IMG/VR virus record: IMGVR_UViG_3300026549_000062
Location: 1 to 64,000 of that record
Strand: one strand, 5' to 3'
Source: a virus
Lineage: Duplodnaviria > Caudoviricetes
Length of the DNA: 64,000 nt
Shown: piece by piece, positions 8,439-59,403 of the stretch
Position numbering within the stretch: position 1 is the first letter of the stretch
Layout of the letters: each line of letters begins with the position of its first letter
Program-made: the position numbers and the translations under genes
The notes under the pieces: generated by a model
Databases searched by the model: none
What the model was told of the DNA's origin: nothing
The model's input: only the letters and a program-made list of their open reading frames with translations

Positions 8439-8651
8439 TTATTCTAAATCAATTAATGATGGGTTTCCAATTACCATGTTTGATAATTCAATAAATGCAA
8501 TATCGTCTTCTATATTAAATTGTTTAATCCCTTCAACGGTTCTATAGCATCCTTTTCTATAATCTTCTTTAGTTGCTTCATACTCTGAAACACATAATTC
8601 AATATCATCTGGAAGTTTGTCTAGTTCTTCTTTAAATTCTTTTACTGTCAT
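8439..8651 (-). CDS. Small hypothetical phage protein (MTVKEFKEELDKLPDD type)
   Basis: AGGAGGAG RBS; first gene after the minus-strand early promoter at ~8692-8720. Confidence 0.75.
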   Translation of the reverse strand: MTVKEFKEELDKLPDDIELCVSEYEATKEDYRKGCYRTVEGIKQFNIEDDIAFIELSNMVIGNPSLIDLE

Positions 8652-8812: not shown

Positions 8813-9292
8813 ATGTATTTTAGAGATAATAATGCAAAAGATCAGGATATCATGGCAGAAGAAACCGAGAATATCTTTGATGAATCAGAGGAAACAGAAG
8901 GCGATGGTATCCAGGATGACAATGCACTTCTTGAAACATTCCTTGTTGATCAGGTTTCAAATATGAGTGATGCTGATAGAAAAGCATATCTTGAATCAGA
9001 TGAATTCAATGCTCTTGTTGAAGCAGGTGTTGTTGGCCGTCGTTCAATTGTTCGTATGAATAAGCAGGATGATCTTCAGAGACGTATCCATCTTGCTTCA
9101 ATCCAGAAAGCAAGAGAAGTCGGCGATGCAGATTGGGAAGCTCTTCGTAAGAATCGTATTAATGAGCGTAGACTCCTTAATAAGATTTATATGAAGTATT
9201 CTAATCGTGTTCGTAGAGATGCAGTCCAGAGTCAGAAGCGTATCATAAAGCTTTCTCCAAGGGCATTTGATGTAACTAGAGCAGTTCGTTAA
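8813..9292 (+). CDS. Putative inner-head protein (acidic propeptide, basic C-terminus)
   Basis: Late motif AACATAACAATA at 8758; acidic N-half with LLE/LVE sites; Arg/Lys-rich C-half. Confidence 0.55.
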   Translation: MYFRDNNAKDQDIMAEETENIFDESEETEGDGIQDDNALLETFLVDQVSNMSDADRKAYLESDEFNALVEAGVVGRRSIVRMNKQDDLQRRIHLASIQKAREVGDADWEALRKNRINERRLLNKIYMKYSNRVRRDAVQSQKRIIKLSPRAFDVTRAVR

Positions 9293-9311
9293 TATTTACT
9301 TTTAAATATTG

Positions 9312-9338
9312 CAGGGTAGGTCATTTTGACCTACCCTG
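9312..9338 (+). terminator. Intrinsic terminator
   Basis: CAGGGTAGGTCA-ttt-TGACCTACCCTG. Confidence 0.8.
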
Positions 9339-9346
9339 TTTATTTG

Positions 9347-9385
9347 TGTAAAAGTATTTATTTTCATTTACATACTATAGAGGTG
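9347..9385 (+). promoter_or_regulatory. Early-type phage promoter
   Basis: TGTAAAA-N13-TTTACATACTATAGAGGTG. Confidence 0.75.
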
Positions 9386-9620
9386 ATGAATGAGAAAAGA
9401 TGTATGACTATAGCATACATTCTGCGAAAGCAGTATCTCATCAGAGTGGAGAAAATTCCTTACCCCGTCGCGCCACTCTGATGAGACATGTTTCTCATTC
9501 TGAAAGTAGGAAAGGCGACAAAGGGGCACGTACGTGGAACAAGATGTGAAGCGTACAGATCAGGTGCAAATCCTGATTGAAAGTATAAACAAGCGGAGAA
9601 GGATTCTCGCTTGTTTTTCC
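9381..9620 (+). ncRNA. Structured ncRNA A (4-way junction, pseudoknot, T-loop hairpin, terminator)
   Basis: Own early promoter and terminator; stems 9388-9397/9491-9500 (10 bp) and 9436-9449/9473-9486 (14 bp); CTGC-GAAA-GCAG; ATCAGG-TGCAAAT-CCTGAT; no well-spaced RBS/ORF. Confidence 0.7.
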
Positions 9621-9655
9621 TTTATTCAATATTTTTTTCGTTTACATACTATTAT

Positions 9656-9860
9656 AGTGAATAGAGTTCAATCTCTATTCATTACAAATTTAAAAAAGGG
9701 TATTCCTAGTTAAAACCCTTTTCCTTCCCTTGGATAGATGATTGACACTTCTTCAAAACAAACATCCTCCAGAAAATCCAAGGTTACTTTCTAAGCCGGA
9801 AAGTGTAAAACACATGTGGCTATGGGGTGAAATATATTTTGTATATTTCACCCTTTGTTT
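9656..9860 (+). ncRNA. Structured RNA B (sRNA or leader of the RNAP beta' operon)
   Basis: Early promoter core at 9641-9653; four successive stems; terminator GGGTGAAATATA/TATATTTCACCC plus T tract; no ORF with an RBS. Confidence 0.55.
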
Positions 9861-9936
9861 TTGTTTAATCTTAAGTTTACAGATAACTTTACTGTAAACA
9901 ATGTTGTTATATATAAAGGTGGAAGGAGTATAACAC

Positions 9937-12177
9937 ATGCTGGAAAACTATCAGAATTACTATGTTTATGCAGACTTAGTAAAACAAGGACGATTATTGG
10001 TAAAAGCAGAAGATATCAATCTTCAAACTTGGGAATCCCATTATAATGGTATTTTCAATATTCTTAGAGACGGAGTAGAGACGGATTATATACAGAACAT
10101 GTTTGTTTCTGTAGACTTTGGAAATGGAGAAATTGTTGATTTAACATTACCAGATTATTACTTCAATCTCCTTATGTGGAGATTGATAGTTTATATTCCC
10201 AATAAGAAGATTGGTCCTCAGCATCTTTTGTTTAAAGACAGTATCACTGCTGGAGATATTAAGAAATATATTGATAAGTTCTTTATAATTCCAGAGAAGA
10301 ACAAACTTCCTAATATTACTCTTAATAATGTAATTGCAGATACACTGTATTATTTCATGGATATTGATCAATTTGCTATGTTCCTAGCAAATACATTGAA
10401 TCTTGAGGATTCTATTGACCTTATGGAAGCTTGCCCAGAATATGATAAGATTCTCCATTCTGATTTGAGTAACGTACCTTTAGAGAAAGTAAAGAACAAA
10501 GGTATGGAACTTGTTCATGAAGCTCAGCATTACATTATGGAATCTGAGAAATATACTGGTCATGAGCATTGCCTTCGTAACCCATTTGCTGCTAAAGAAG
10601 GAATTAATGAACGTCAATATAAAGACAATAGTATCAATATCGGTACAAAACCAGATGGTCAAGGTTCTGTTTATCATGACATGATTAATCAGTCTTATAT
10701 CACTGGTGGTCTTAATAAACTTATTTATCAGTATATTGATGATGCATCTGCTCGTGTTGCTCAGATTATCTCTAAGAAGAACGTCGGTGATTCTGGCGGA
10801 TTCTCTCGTATTCTTGGTCTTAATAATGTAATCTCATTCTTAAATCCAGATCTTGATTATGATTGCGGAACTAATAATCTAATTCCACAATTCATTCCAA
10901 ACAAAGATATTCTTTCTATGCTTGAGGGAAGATATTATAAACTTAATTATAATAGTAATCTTAGAAAGATTGGTCCTAATGACTCCTTCCTTATTGGACA
11001 AACAATTCTTTTAAGATCTCCTATTACTTGTGCTAGTGCAGCAGCAGGTCATGGTGTATGCCATCATTGCTATGGTGATCTTGCATATACCAATACTGAT
11101 ATCAATATTGGTCGTATTGCTACAGAAATTATTACGTCTCAGTATACACAGATGCGTCTATCTGCTAAGCATCTTCTTGAAGCTAAGCTTAAAGAGATTC
11201 TCTGGGTTAATGAATTCTATAACTTCTTTAGAATTGATATCAATACTATCAATCTTAGAGATGATCTTGATATGAAGACATTTAAAGGTTGGAAGTTTGT
11301 ATTCAATTTTGATGATATTCAGTTAGAGAATGATGATGATTTCTTCCAACACAAGTTCTATATGGGAGATATGTATTCTGATACAGATGAAACCCCACTG
11401 TATAATGAATATATTAATGAATTCAAAGTAGTAGATCCAGATGGTAATGAATATAAGATTGATGCTGATATTGATGGTGAAGATGGGGTTAAAGCCAAAC
11501 TATTCATCACAGCTAGTCTGAGTAAGCTTATTAGAGAACATATCTCTATTGATGATGAATCTGATGATATTATTATTAATCTTACTGAACTTGATAAAAT
11601 TCCTATCTTTCTAGTTAAGATGGAGAACAATGATCTCGGTAAATCTCTTGATGAATTCAATGAGCTTATCAATAAGAAAGCTGTAACCAAACAGTTCAAT
11701 ATTCCAGAACTTCTACAGAAGATTCAACTTAATACCAAAAAGGGTGGAATTCATTGTACTTCTGTACATCTTGAAATCATCCTTATGAATCAGGTTAGAT
11801 CTGCTAAGAATAGACTTATGATGCCTAATTGGAGAAACTATAATGAACCATATGAAGTTCTAACTCTTAATGAGGCACTTACTGACAATCCATCTATTAT
11901 TATTTCTACTACATATAGAAAACTAGCTAAGGCACTTAACTATCCACTTAGTTTCGAGAAATGCGCTCCATCCATCTTTGATCTATTCTTTATGAGAAAA
12001 CCAAAGAAATTTATTAATGTTGACCATGAAGTTCTTGATATTCCAAATCAGTCTTCCCAGAAACCATTTACTTCTCCAGTAGTGTATTTCCATGATCATT
12101 CTGGAAAGAGACCTCTTAATATTAGAGAAGCTGTAAAGAACCTAGACAAATCTCCTAAAACAAGACTAGATGATTAA
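9937..12177 (+). CDS. rpoC: Multisubunit RNA polymerase beta' C-terminal subunit (probably non-virion RNAP)
   Basis: Bridge helix SKKNVGDSGGFSRILG, DCGT, zinc site RSPITC...GVCHHCYG, trigger loop NIGRIATEIITSQYTQMRLSAKH; carries the far C-terminus (HLEIILMNQVR). Confidence 0.9.
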   Translation: MLENYQNYYVYADLVKQGRLLVKAEDINLQTWESHYNGIFNILRDGVETDYIQNMFVSVDFGNGEIVDLTLPDYYFNLLMWRLIVYIPNKKIGPQHLLFKDSITAGDIKKYIDKFFIIPEKNKLPNITLNNVIADTLYYFMDIDQFAMFLANTLNLEDSIDLMEACPEYDKILHSDLSNVPLEKVKNKGMELVHEAQHYIMESEKYTGHEHCLRNPFAAKEGINERQYKDNSINIGTKPDGQGSVYHDMINQSYITGGLNKLIYQYIDDASARVAQIISKKNVGDSGGFSRILGLNNVISFLNPDLDYDCGTNNLIPQFIPNKDILSMLEGRYYKLNYNSNLRKIGPNDSFLIGQTILLRSPITCASAAAGHGVCHHCYGDLAYTNTDINIGRIATEIITSQYTQMRLSAKHLLEAKLKEILWVNEFYNFFRIDINTINLRDDLDMKTFKGWKFVFNFDDIQLENDDDFFQHKFYMGDMYSDTDETPLYNEYINEFKVVDPDGNEYKIDADIDGEDGVKAKLFITASLSKLIREHISIDDESDDIIINLTELDKIPIFLVKMENNDLGKSLDEFNELINKKAVTKQFNIPELLQKIQLNTKKGGIHCTSVHLEIILMNQVRSAKNRLMMPNWRNYNEPYEVLTLNEALTDNPSIIISTTYRKLAKALNYPLSFEKCAPSIFDLFFMRKPKKFINVDHEVLDIPNQSSQKPFTSPVVYFHDHSGKRPLNIREAVKNLDKSPKTRLDD

Positions 12178-56923: not shown

Positions 56924-57039
56924 ATGAATCATCTCCTTCGTTATACATGTGCTGTTTATCACTTCTATATTACGTCAATAAAAAAATACTATTTTTACAA
57001 AAATATAGGGCTAGACCATATTGGTCTAGCCCTAATAAG

Positions 57040-57234
57040 TCATAATACAGGTTCTTCAACAATATAATACTTGATATTCTGTACATCTTTCTCTTCATAG
57101 ATAGATTCTAATTTTTCTTTATAGATTGAAGCATCCATTTTTTCTTTGAAGATATAGATAAGATTATTATCTATTTCTCCGTTTAGTTTCTGATATGCCA
57201 TAAAGAGTGCATATACTACTTCTTGTTGTTCCAT
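57040..57234 (-). CDS. Small early protein, related to the 41541 family N-domain
   Basis: VYALF...IYIFKEKMDASIYKEKL...YYIVEEPVL; AGGAGG RBS; early promoter 57275-57300. Confidence 0.7.
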   Translation of the reverse strand: MEQQEVVYALFMAYQKLNGEIDNNLIYIFKEKMDASIYKEKLESIYEEKDVQNIKYYIVEEPVL

Positions 57235-57303
57235 AAGATTTACCTCCTATACATATGATATTACCATACCATATCTATAGTATGTAAATCAAACAACATT
57301 TAA

Positions 57304-57330
57304 AAGGGTAGACCAATTTGGTCTACCCTT
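57304..57330. terminator. Terminator downstream of the capsid gene
   Basis: AAGGGTAGACCA-at-TGGTCTACCCTT-like hairpin. Confidence 0.7.
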
Positions 57331-57354
57331 GAATAGTCTAGATAAAAATTTATA

Positions 57355-59403
57355 TTAGTGTTTACCACCATTAACTGGAGGGAAAATTGTTGATGGATTA
57401 GCAGGAGCTGGGTTTGATGGATCATATGTTGCATAGTTTGGTCCATAGATGTACTTAACATCACGAACAGCATCTGCGAATTCACCTGGAGCAGCCGTCT
57501 CAGGATCAATAGCGCTATGTGGCGTGTTAGGAATTGCATCCTTATCGAACTCAACAAACTTCTTCGTATCTCTATCATACGTAACTTTGTTAGCCGTATA
57601 GTCATTCATAGCACGATCACCAATTGGATTATCATTGTCGATCTGCTCACGGAGACCCGTCGGGTTGACAATCTGGATACGACCCTGAACTGGCTGATAG
57701 CTGATGAAGAGGAATCTCTCAAAAGCCGTTACAGCTGGGAGCTGGTAGTTATCCGTATCACGGATTTCATTACCAACGTAGAGCTGATAATCGTAAATCT
57801 TGTAGATTACACGATTGCTGTTTCTTGGGCAAAGAATAATGATAAGGTTGTTATCATTACGAAGCTTGTTTGAAGAAATGAACTGATAAATACGATTATC
57901 ACTCGTCTTAACAGTCTTCTTATAATCAAGCATAACAGGACCAATGTTTGGAGGCGTTACATAAGAATACTCTTTTGGTGTAATCTTACGGATGAGTTCT
58001 GGACGACCAAAAATACTAACAGTTACATTCTCATCATTGAGAACCTGGAGGAGATACGTAACCTGAGTATCAAGGTAATCCATGAACGTCTCATAACGCC
58101 ACGTAACGAAGGACCCCATGAAGCTGTCAGGAGGAGCAAAATCAAATGCACCAGAGACTTTGGAGGTCTGTGGGAGGTTGAGGAAGGACGTATCGAGATC
58201 TTCAAGAATCTTATCATCCTTGTAGTTGAGAAGCGCAAGCTTGATCATGCTCATGATCTTCGTGAGCTGATTGACGTTGTACATAGCCTGAACGTCTTTC
58301 GTCTCTTCTGGGGAGATCGTGACCGTGATGTGTGGTGCTTCTGGAATCTCGAAGTAATCCGTACGAGCGCTCCATTTAACTTTTGGCGTCTCATATGCTG
58401 CACTTGAAACATCAAGAGCTGCAGAAAGGATAACATGCGTAACATTAGCTGACGTGCTCATGAACGTAAACTTGTTGTTATGCATTGAACCAGCAAGCTG
58501 GAACTCTTCATTACGAACTGTACCCGTACCATCCGTTGGAAGAATCATATCAATTCTCTTCTGGAACGTACGATCATACTGACCAAATGAAGCAACAAAA
58601 CGAATTGGCTCAATTGGAATAATCTTCTCAGCAAGAGCACCAGTATCAGACGTATAAACCTGAACCTTCTTCTGGCCAGGATTATCTGGATCATCAACTA
58701 GAACTTCGTCACCCTTTGTTGCCCAAACATCTTTGACAACGAGTTTCGTGACCTTTGATGCACGAGAAACATTTGCCGTAGCTCTATTAACAGCACCAAG
58801 TAGGCCAAGAACATCTGTCTTCTGGTCTTCTGGAACTGGGATAATAATATCCTTACGAGGAACAGCAGACTCAATCATATCCTTGATCTTGTTCTGCTCA
58901 AGGAACATATCAATCTGCGTACCATCTGGAGCATAAAGAGTTCTCGTTTCCATGGTGAGCGTGAACTGTGGACCAGCAGCTACATCCTTTGGAATTGCAC
59001 CTTTATCAAATACAGTCGTCATAAGAAGATTCTTATGCATTGGGAAGGTAATACCAACCACTGGGTTATAAGCACCAAGTGGAGCAGCCTCACAAAGACC
59101 ATTAACATCGTTCTCATAAAGACGATTAAGGTCAGCATAAGCTTCATTAACAGCTTCTGGATCATCCTTATACTTAGGATCATTTGGGTCAAATGCAGAC
59201 TCGATGAAGAACTTCTTCATCTGATTTGAAAGTGTCGGATTCTGGAAGAATCTTGACGGATCAGAATAGAAATCAACACCCTCATTTAGACCTGCCTTAG
59301 CAATATCAGTAAACTGCTCAGCAAGGCCGTGGAGCGGATTTTTATTATAACTACGAAGTACTTCGCTATTCTGCTGTTTTTTATCTGTTCCAACAACAGC
59401 CAT
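57355..59403 (-). CDS. Major capsid protein (HK97 fold, jumbo-phage type)
   Basis: 682 aa; strongly biased high-expression codons; late motif 59523-59534; N-terminal propeptide ending GLCE/AAPLG; SPEETKDVQAMYNVN...LALLNYKDDKILEDL resembles the gp23 TQELAQDL...IMxEINREV region. Confidence 0.85.
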   Translation of the reverse strand: MAVVGTDKKQQNSEVLRSYNKNPLHGLAEQFTDIAKAGLNEGVDFYSDPSRFFQNPTLSNQMKKFFIESAFDPNDPKYKDDPEAVNEAYADLNRLYENDVNGLCEAAPLGAYNPVVGITFPMHKNLLMTTVFDKGAIPKDVAAGPQFTLTMETRTLYAPDGTQIDMFLEQNKIKDMIESAVPRKDIIIPVPEDQKTDVLGLLGAVNRATANVSRASKVTKLVVKDVWATKGDEVLVDDPDNPGQKKVQVYTSDTGALAEKIIPIEPIRFVASFGQYDRTFQKRIDMILPTDGTGTVRNEEFQLAGSMHNNKFTFMSTSANVTHVILSAALDVSSAAYETPKVKWSARTDYFEIPEAPHITVTISPEETKDVQAMYNVNQLTKIMSMIKLALLNYKDDKILEDLDTSFLNLPQTSKVSGAFDFAPPDSFMGSFVTWRYETFMDYLDTQVTYLLQVLNDENVTVSIFGRPELIRKITPKEYSYVTPPNIGPVMLDYKKTVKTSDNRIYQFISSNKLRNDNNLIIILCPRNSNRVIYKIYDYQLYVGNEIRDTDNYQLPAVTAFERFLFISYQPVQGRIQIVNPTGLREQIDNDNPIGDRAMNDYTANKVTYDRDTKKFVEFDKDAIPNTPHSAIDPETAAPGEFADAVRDVKYIYGPNYATYDPSNPAPANPSTIFPPVNGGKH

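Follow-up and report, generated by a model that had tools for sequence, protein, structure and literature searches.

A compact structured RNA with an early-type promoter of its own lies upstream of the non-virion RNA polymerase gene in an AR9-like rumen jumbo phage

An AR9-like jumbo phage of the rumen, represented in samples from cattle and sheep gut, encodes a real and previously undescribed structured RNA, here called RNA A, upstream of the gene for the beta' subunit of its non-virion RNA polymerase. In its broad kind RNA A is familiar, being an orphan stand-alone phage non-coding RNA (ncRNA): it has its own promoter and terminator, a conserved fold, and no convincing open reading frame (ORF). 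Its architecture, however, matches none of the orphan RNAs with which it was compared. The explanation that we favour, while placing it somewhat short of an even chance, is that RNA A is an accessory early gene, transcribed as a unit of its own, and that the RNA made from it, about 200 nt long and compacted by tertiary folding, would act in trans by its shape as a protein-binding decoy or aptamer.

The DNA analysed here (the window) makes up the first 64 kb of a virus contig of 88 kb. The contig amounts to about a third of the genome; the longest strain contigs extend to 314 kb. Gene order at the locus is shared with Bacillus phage AR9: a DNA polymerase gene read from the minus strand is followed by a small gene on the plus strand, an early promoter, the gene for the beta' subunit of the non-virion RNA polymerase, and a helicase gene; in AR9 an early promoter likewise precedes the orthologous g154. 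Between the 159-aa gene upstream (8813-9292) and the polymerase gene (9937) lie 644 ORF-poor bases, which contain two promoter-terminator units, RNA A and RNA B (Table 1).

Table 1. Features of the RNA A locus, in window positions
Feature	Position	Strand	Remarks
Conserved 159-aa gene, upstream flank	8813..9292	+	position equals AR9 g153 (virion protein); match by position alone
Terminator hairpin of the 159-aa gene	9311..9339	+	insulates RNA A; RNA-library contigs from three studies end at 9281
Phage early promoter (virion RNA polymerase type)	9367..9384	+	TTTACATACTAT, then 6-nt spacer
RNA A body, about 200 nt, predicted start G9385	9385..9586	+	z -4.6; fold kept in allele II; one RNA-library contig
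31-codon ORF over the 5' domain	9386..9481	+	no ribosome-binding site within the predicted transcript; rival reading
Four-way junction domain	9388..9500	+	P1 (9388-9397/9491-9500; core 9390-9396/9492-9498) closes P2, P3 and P4
P2, 8-bp hairpin	9399..9421 (9399-9406/9414-9421)	+	invariant in all alleles
P3, GNRA (GAAA) tetraloop hairpin	9422..9433 (9422-9425/9430-9433)	+	invariant
P4, 14-bp helix	9436..9486 (9436-9449/9473-9486)	+	23-nt loop 9450-9472; only G9472U varies
Putative pseudoknot	9463..9526 (9463-9466 with 9523-9526; 9467-9471 with 9515-9519)	+	-15.7 kcal/mol
A-rich linker	9499..9510	+	small hairpin with NAAAGU loop, or T-loop docking site (A9508, G9509)
P5 with 3x3 purine internal loop (GGA/GAA) and short P5b	9530..9556 (9530-9535/9551-9556)	+	
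P6, T-loop hairpin	9559..9577 (9559-9564/9572-9577)	+	loop UGCAAAU; UGAAAAU in allele II
Intrinsic-terminator-like hairpin and U tract	9587..9622	+	hairpin 9587-9616 seen in the fold; stem invariant
RNA B, neighbouring unit with own early promoter and terminator	9641..9862	+	not homologous to RNA A
Variant early-promoter-like site directly 5' of the RNA polymerase gene	9908..9922	+	
Phage RNA polymerase beta' subunit, AR9 g154 homolog (non-virion polymerase), downstream flank	9937..12177	+	PHROG 3015, E 6e-47

A reading of the sequence alone had described this region as a stand-alone unit with an early promoter and a terminator of its own, richer in G+C than its surroundings. That description held: the promoter motif, its geometry, and the terminator hairpin were all found, and the G+C content of RNA A is 43%, against 31% for the contig. 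The motif TACATACTAT is present in 20 copies in the 88-kb contig, where 0.9 would be expected, and a G follows exactly 7 nt later in all 20. The early promoters of AR9, which are read by the virion polymerase, have the geometry motif-6N-G(+1) (PMC5312081); because the geometry is the same here, RNA A is predicted to start at G9385, and we infer that it is transcribed early by the virion polymerase. The terminator hairpin is absent from the list produced by a simple terminator scan, though present in the fold, and its U tract is extended in a second allele (allele II, described below) by C9620U. The promoter of RNA B begins directly behind it. Since this promoter (9641) and another at about 9908 both stand behind the terminator, RNA A need not control anything downstream, and no role in cis is required.

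Contigs assembled from RNA libraries are compatible with expression of RNA A, with DNA carry-over being possible. One rumen metatranscriptome contains a contig spanning 9356-9598 at a depth of 9, without strand or end information, which begins 29 nt before the predicted start. The upstream gene lies on a separate RNA-library contig (depth 25), with a gap over the terminator before the RNA A contig, and RNA B lies on yet another contig. In three other RNA runs the contigs do not cover RNA A, and such contigs are unable to show absence.

Folding of the plus strand beats 200 of 200 dinucleotide shuffles (z -4.4 with the terminator and -4.6 without it), and the pair probabilities of the helices are mostly >0.95. 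All of the helices that had been picked out from the sequence alone are present at their positions with high pair probabilities. The loop of P4 holds a pyrimidine tract, UUCCUUACCCC, together with the 5' strand of the putative pseudoknot. An alternative fold lies about 6 kcal/mol higher, and the RNA carries an internal repeat, AUGAGA/UCUCAU.

Two further structural claims of the sequence-only reading need qualification. For the pseudoknot, the complement exists as proposed (-15.7 kcal/mol), its strands being two segments that are otherwise unpaired, and pairing as good is reached by only 45 of 25,211 genomic 29-mers (0.2%). However, 10% of composition-matched shuffles do as well, and the strands are invariant across alleles, with no covariation; a pseudoknot in RNA A is a plausible element of the model. 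The T-loop hairpin had been called tRNA-like, a label that goes too far: P6 has a generic, riboswitch-type T-loop rather than GUUCRA, ARAGORN finds neither a tRNA nor a tmRNA at RNA A, an acceptor stem and a CCA end are both lacking, and C gives way to A at loop position 3 in allele II. In tRNA, C56 pairs with G19. A mimic of the tRNA elbow would be expected to have an invariant C at this T-loop position, paired with a G of a D-loop; in RNA A the accompanying change G9509U could preserve a pair there as A-U. The third base of T-loops makes long-range pairs in other RNAs as well (PMC4810234).

Strain variation provides a view of how the fold has been treated by mutation. RNA A is unchanged in nine strain contigs (L002-L010), an identity that was set aside as evidence of selection since other stretches are equally invariant in these contigs and divergence is patchy. 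Allele II is found in seven further strain contigs, reached via variant forms of the upstream protein, and promoter and terminator are intact in 17 of the 17 contigs read. Between allele II and the window, 9-10 of 202 RNA A positions differ (4.5-5%), in addition to indels, as compared with 30-33 of ~100 synonymous sites (30-33%) in the adjacent upstream gene, a comparison that is weakened by mosaic recombination in the region. In allele II no more than one change falls within the 92 nt of P2-P4, and none within the 45-nt segment that runs from the pseudoknot partner to P5; apart from G9472U, the unpaired junction and loop bases of these segments are conserved between the alleles too. Because changes are found at both ends and in the middle of RNA A, conservation of the core is not accounted for by recombination of one patch, even though the region is mosaic.

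The changes themselves largely spare the structure. Allele II breaks 2 pairs, where 5.4 would be expected for the same substitutions placed at random (P~0.02), and when such changes are introduced at random, the mutant folds are less stable by about 10 kcal/mol (P~0.04); with only two alleles of one species, these changes represent few events. A9555G in P5 and A9576G in P6 each turn a U-A pair into U.G. In P1, two terminal pairs are lost, and the pair A9396-U9492 becomes G-C provided that the insertion is assigned to the A-run; this compensatory pair depends on hand placement, as the MAFFT alignment sets the P1 insertion as a gap and the pair count then includes no two-sided change. An inserted A and G9509U leave the small hairpin after P1 in place, C9567A changes the variable third base of the T-loop, and the remaining changes fall in loops or linkers. 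These patterns offer modest evidence of selection on the fold, apparently purifying. G9509U co-occurs with C9567A, such that position 3 of the T-loop and the linker would still form a Watson-Crick pair (as A-U), with A9508 intercalating; this is one event, noticed post hoc, and the comparison is based on the T-loop docking mode with an intercalating base (PMC4810234). The T-loop may possibly dock onto the A-rich linker in this way, a reading that competes with the small hairpin in 9499-9510.

RNA A appears confined to this species. No homolog outside it was found by blastn in INPHARED and PLSDB, and all matches outside the species to exact sequence patterns (four in IMG/VR and two in GTDB) were at chance level. 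DNA and covariance-model searches of 23 phage records (18 related IMG/VR records; AR9, LPJP1, JD-Fnp1, Machias, and phiR1-37) likewise gave no homolog, though distant homologs could be missed with exact patterns and with covariance models built from one or five near-identical sequences. The two best matches from these searches lie inside coding sequence, and Lachnospiraceae matches (L127 and L153) lie antisense within a gene of an rnf-type operon; all were rejected. There is no paralog of RNA A in the 88-kb contig. Rfam 15 (4227 models) gave 0 matches in the window at the gathering threshold and only noise-level matches at relaxed E-values for both alleles, as had been anticipated for a novel RNA.

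The place that RNA A occupies is filled differently in related phages. In the nearest other species, the polymerase gene is only about 63% identical and the slot before it usually measures 130-310 bp. Among relatives the slot may be empty; elsewhere it is occupied by a gene for an antirepressor (L001), by an HNH gene together with an RNA (L072), or by folded RNAs unrelated to RNA A. The slot RNAs of L072, L088, L091, and L092 gave no covariance-model match with RNA A in either direction. As the slot is variable among relatives, RNA A is best regarded as an accessory cassette and not as a core part of the polymerase operon.

Several of these slots deserve description in their own right. Four relatives share a different structured RNA of ~210 nt (L088:2668-2870, L091:9659-9865, L092:1851-2062, and L072:2578-2785) with 77% mean column identity, six pairs with two-sided changes, no Rfam match, and a conserved anti-SD-like tract, CCUCC..CCUCCUUA; in L072 the HNH gene is found between the promoter and this RNA. 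As a candidate RNA family, it shows better conservation than RNA A. Another unrelated slot RNA, with a ACCUCCUA loop (z -2.4), is present at L093:2610-2825 and in L094, and the slot RNA at L024:3680-3935 reads, by sequence alone, as a long end-paired hairpin of 6S-like outline. Just before the DNA polymerase gene, two relatives carry a small Tad8-like (anti-Thoeris) gene, below the Pfam cut-off (L113:1053-1283 and L114:1515-1745). The 70-aa gene of the window (8439-8651) was considered as its counterpart and rejected, since it does not align to the L113/L114 gene.

The surroundings of RNA A hold further features. RNA B folds well (9659-9862, z -5.2), and its terminator stem covaries between strains, with several compensatory changes in strain L005. 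Its tracts UUCCUUCC and CAUCCUCC are complementary to the SD region of beta'; despite this, beta' seems to be served by a separate promoter of its own, near 9908. Across strains, window positions 8813-10400 are strongly mosaic, with blocks of ~30% synonymous divergence alternating with identical blocks and breakpoints close to both RNA units. Perfect inverted repeats, about 45 in number, are scattered over the intergenic parts of the contig (e.g., at window 5866, 9312, 12184, 23666, 38244, 50810, and 57304). Many have a purine-TAG/CTA-pyrimidine core and loops that are almost self-complementary, and a clear U tract is often missing; they are candidates for bidirectional terminators or protein-binding sites. 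A permuted tmRNA-like feature reported by ARAGORN at 56938-57527 at a lowered threshold is probably spurious, as it disappears at the default threshold, overlaps ORFs, and has no Rfam match. One window ORF encodes a chaperonin according to the Pfam scan (Cpn60_TCP1, E 1e-17).

How might RNA A act? By the AR9 promoter rule, the injected virion RNA polymerase would start at G9385 and stop at the hairpin near 9620. The transcript would then fold into the four-way junction, in keeping with the folding results and the pattern of allelic change, and the junction could be tied to the 3' module through the loop-to-linker pseudoknot and possibly through docking of the T-loop on the A-rich linker. Within minutes of the start of infection, the closed, stable particle would most likely bind and titrate a protein, such as a host enzyme that processes RNA or a host defence that recognises it. 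Action in trans by shape is favoured because the tertiary motifs (the GNRA loop, the 3x3 purine internal loop, and the T-loop) and the unpaired junction bases are conserved, and because the one evident seed for base pairing is matched by a partner strand within RNA A itself; the pseudoknot, if formed, would bury that seed.

The same seed underlies the main rival to a shape-acting decoy, which we consider unlikely: a base-pairing sRNA whose C-rich P4 loop pairs with G-rich single strands, either SDs, including that of beta', or the 5' arms of terminator hairpins, with the pseudoknot serving as a safety catch that opens on the target. The pseudoknot strand in the P4 loop is invariant, the beta' ribosome-binding region ranks second among the ORF start regions of the contig (-13.2 kcal/mol), C-rich loop sRNAs are known in Firmicutes, and anti-SD-like CCUCC tracts are present in the slot RNAs of relatives and in RNA B. 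Against terminator arms the loop beats shuffles (P 0.003-0.01 on two of three measures, tested after the hits had been seen). Across 56 SD-bearing start regions, however, it performs no better than shuffles (P 0.2-0.7), the intramolecular pseudoknot (-15.7 kcal/mol) is stronger than every start-region duplex, and pairing by the loop would leave the conservation of the T-loop, GNRA loop, and P5 unexplained. It is quite unlikely that RNA A is instead a dual-function or structured mRNA for a basic peptide of 25-31 aa encoded over P1-P4, with the fold controlling translation. The reading frame is open in both alleles, as allele II lacks ATG 9386 and a +1 insertion brings ATG 9390 into frame (30 codons), and the sole change in the 25-codon core, G9472U, is synonymous; yet a match of frame has a 1-in-3 chance of arising, P1 and P2 sequester the start codons in base pairs, no homologs of the ORF were found, and half of the conserved RNA lies 3' of the stop codon. 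The one SD-like sequence, GAGG, precedes the predicted transcription start and fits the general promoter spacer.

The compact multi-helix fold, the possible pseudoknot, and the invariant junction bases would also suit a new class of ribozyme, self-cleaving or trans-acting, and a hammerhead-like CUGAUGA is present at 9478-9484. This motif is locked in P4 (pair probability about 1) without formation of hammerhead geometry, the sole plus-strand match to the L3 motif of HDV-like and theta ribozymes is in the terminator and none is in the body, no Rfam ribozyme model matches, and self-cutting would seem superfluous in a unit already delimited by a promoter and a terminator; judged from such motifs, a ribozyme would be very unlikely. 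The riboswitch-like T-loop hairpin, the terminator directly after it, and the position upstream of the beta' gene could point to a riboswitch or attenuator governing read-through into RNA B and the polymerase operon. We see only a slim chance of this, as the two promoters behind the terminator (9643 and about 9908) are separate, the ensemble contains no antiterminator, no Rfam riboswitch matches above noise, and allele II carries a frameshift in the GUG ORF that follows the GGGG strand. It is highly improbable that RNA A is an RNA anti-CRISPR or a crRNA mimic. The window allele does have a hairpin (P6) followed by a AUUGAAAG handle at 9576-9583, and there is precedent in Racrs, promoter-led solitary repeats in phages, with the handle being dispensable for RacrIF1 (PMC10651486), but the handle is lost in allele II, no CRISPR repeat family gave a significant match, and the large invariant 5' domain would be unexplained. 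Lastly, RNA A could be what is left, without selection, of a mobile or duplicated element, its good folding being due to internal repeats, given its presence in one species only, its AUGAGA/UCUCAU repeat with the nearby alternative fold, and the resemblance of the P4 loop to the 3' arm of the phage's terminator palindromes. To this we assign little probability, since promoter and terminator are intact in 17/17 contigs, divergence is low, and the changes spare the structure.

To our knowledge, jumbo phages with their own RNA polymerases make ncRNAs of which almost none has been given a structure or function. RNA A is small enough for direct transcription, probing, and structure solving, with two natural alleles as built-in controls. 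The different folded RNAs found per lineage in the slot before the non-virion polymerase gene suggest an RNA-based accessory layer in early infection, and if the decoy explanation of RNA A were true, it would be an addition to the short list of RNA counter-defences. A broader proposal, possible but doubtful, is that RNA A is the first of a set of undescribed compact early phage RNAs locked by a pseudoknot and T-loop, a decoy (or catalyst) that targets some host function, and that it belongs to several RNA cassettes which AR9-like jumbo phages of the gut exchange for one another in the slot 5' of the RNA polymerase gene.

Among the known RNA classes with which RNA A was compared, the hallmarks of tRNA, tmRNA, RNase P RNA, and SRP RNA were not found, in agreement with the sequence-only reading. 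For RNase P RNA, the CR-I and CR-V motifs are absent and P1 closes the 5' half only, and the S-domain motif of SRP RNA around the GNRA loop was not found. RNA A has a branched, two-domain fold and not the one long end-paired hairpin of a 6S RNA-like polymerase decoy. Its neighbours are the 159-aa gene, RNA B, and polymerase beta', with no adjacent reverse transcriptase, TnpB, or IscB gene as in retron, DRT, or OMEGA systems; a Pfam scan of the larger ORFs of the 88-kb contig, which covers about a third of the genome, likewise turned up no reverse transcriptase, TnpB, IscB, or Ro60-like partner. Resemblances to a pistol ribozyme substrate strand, SAM-I J3/4, group II intron domain V, and a CRISPR I-C repeat were rejected, as the partner strands are missing.

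The T-loop module invites two comparisons. Complete aptamer cores of FMN, cobalamin, and SAM riboswitches are absent; the hairpin GG-UGNAAAU-CC resembles the T-loop modules of FMN and cobalamin riboswitches, and P6, alone in RNA A, weakly matches positions 85-104 (P5 region) of the FMN model. This match scores 12 bits against a gathering score of 66, and there is no regulated gene in the RNA A transcript. A T-loop hairpin near the 3' end together with a putative pseudoknot is also reminiscent of viral tRNA-like structures and Y-RNA-type tRNA mimics, from which RNA A differs in lacking the GUUCRA loop, acceptor stem, and CCA, in having C or A at loop position 3, and in the lack of a Ro60 gene in the contig scan. 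Firmicutes sRNAs with C-rich loops are known, such as RsaE/RoxS and RNAIII. Like these, RNA A displays a pyrimidine tract with CCCC in a hairpin loop; unlike them, it also contains a strand complementary to the tract, and the loop showed no enrichment for pairing with SDs.

RNA A is most comparable with orphan RNAs. Among these, GOLLD, ROOL, the raiA motif, OLE, and HEARO are ornate, stand-alone, and often phage-borne RNAs whose function is mostly unassigned. RNA A shares with them a multi-junction fold, a possible pseudoknot, and T-loop or GNRA motifs, but it matches none of their models even at E up to 10, is smaller than most, and is found in one species. Phage T4 encodes the small RNAs RNAC and RNAD, which have no assigned function and are classed as late (PMC9697503), and phiKZ also encodes non-coding RNAs (PMC13282480). 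In contrast to the late RNAC and RNAD, RNA A has its own early promoter and terminator, and it has no INPHARED or Rfam match. As with these T4 and phiKZ RNAs, it is a small phage-encoded ncRNA without an assigned function.
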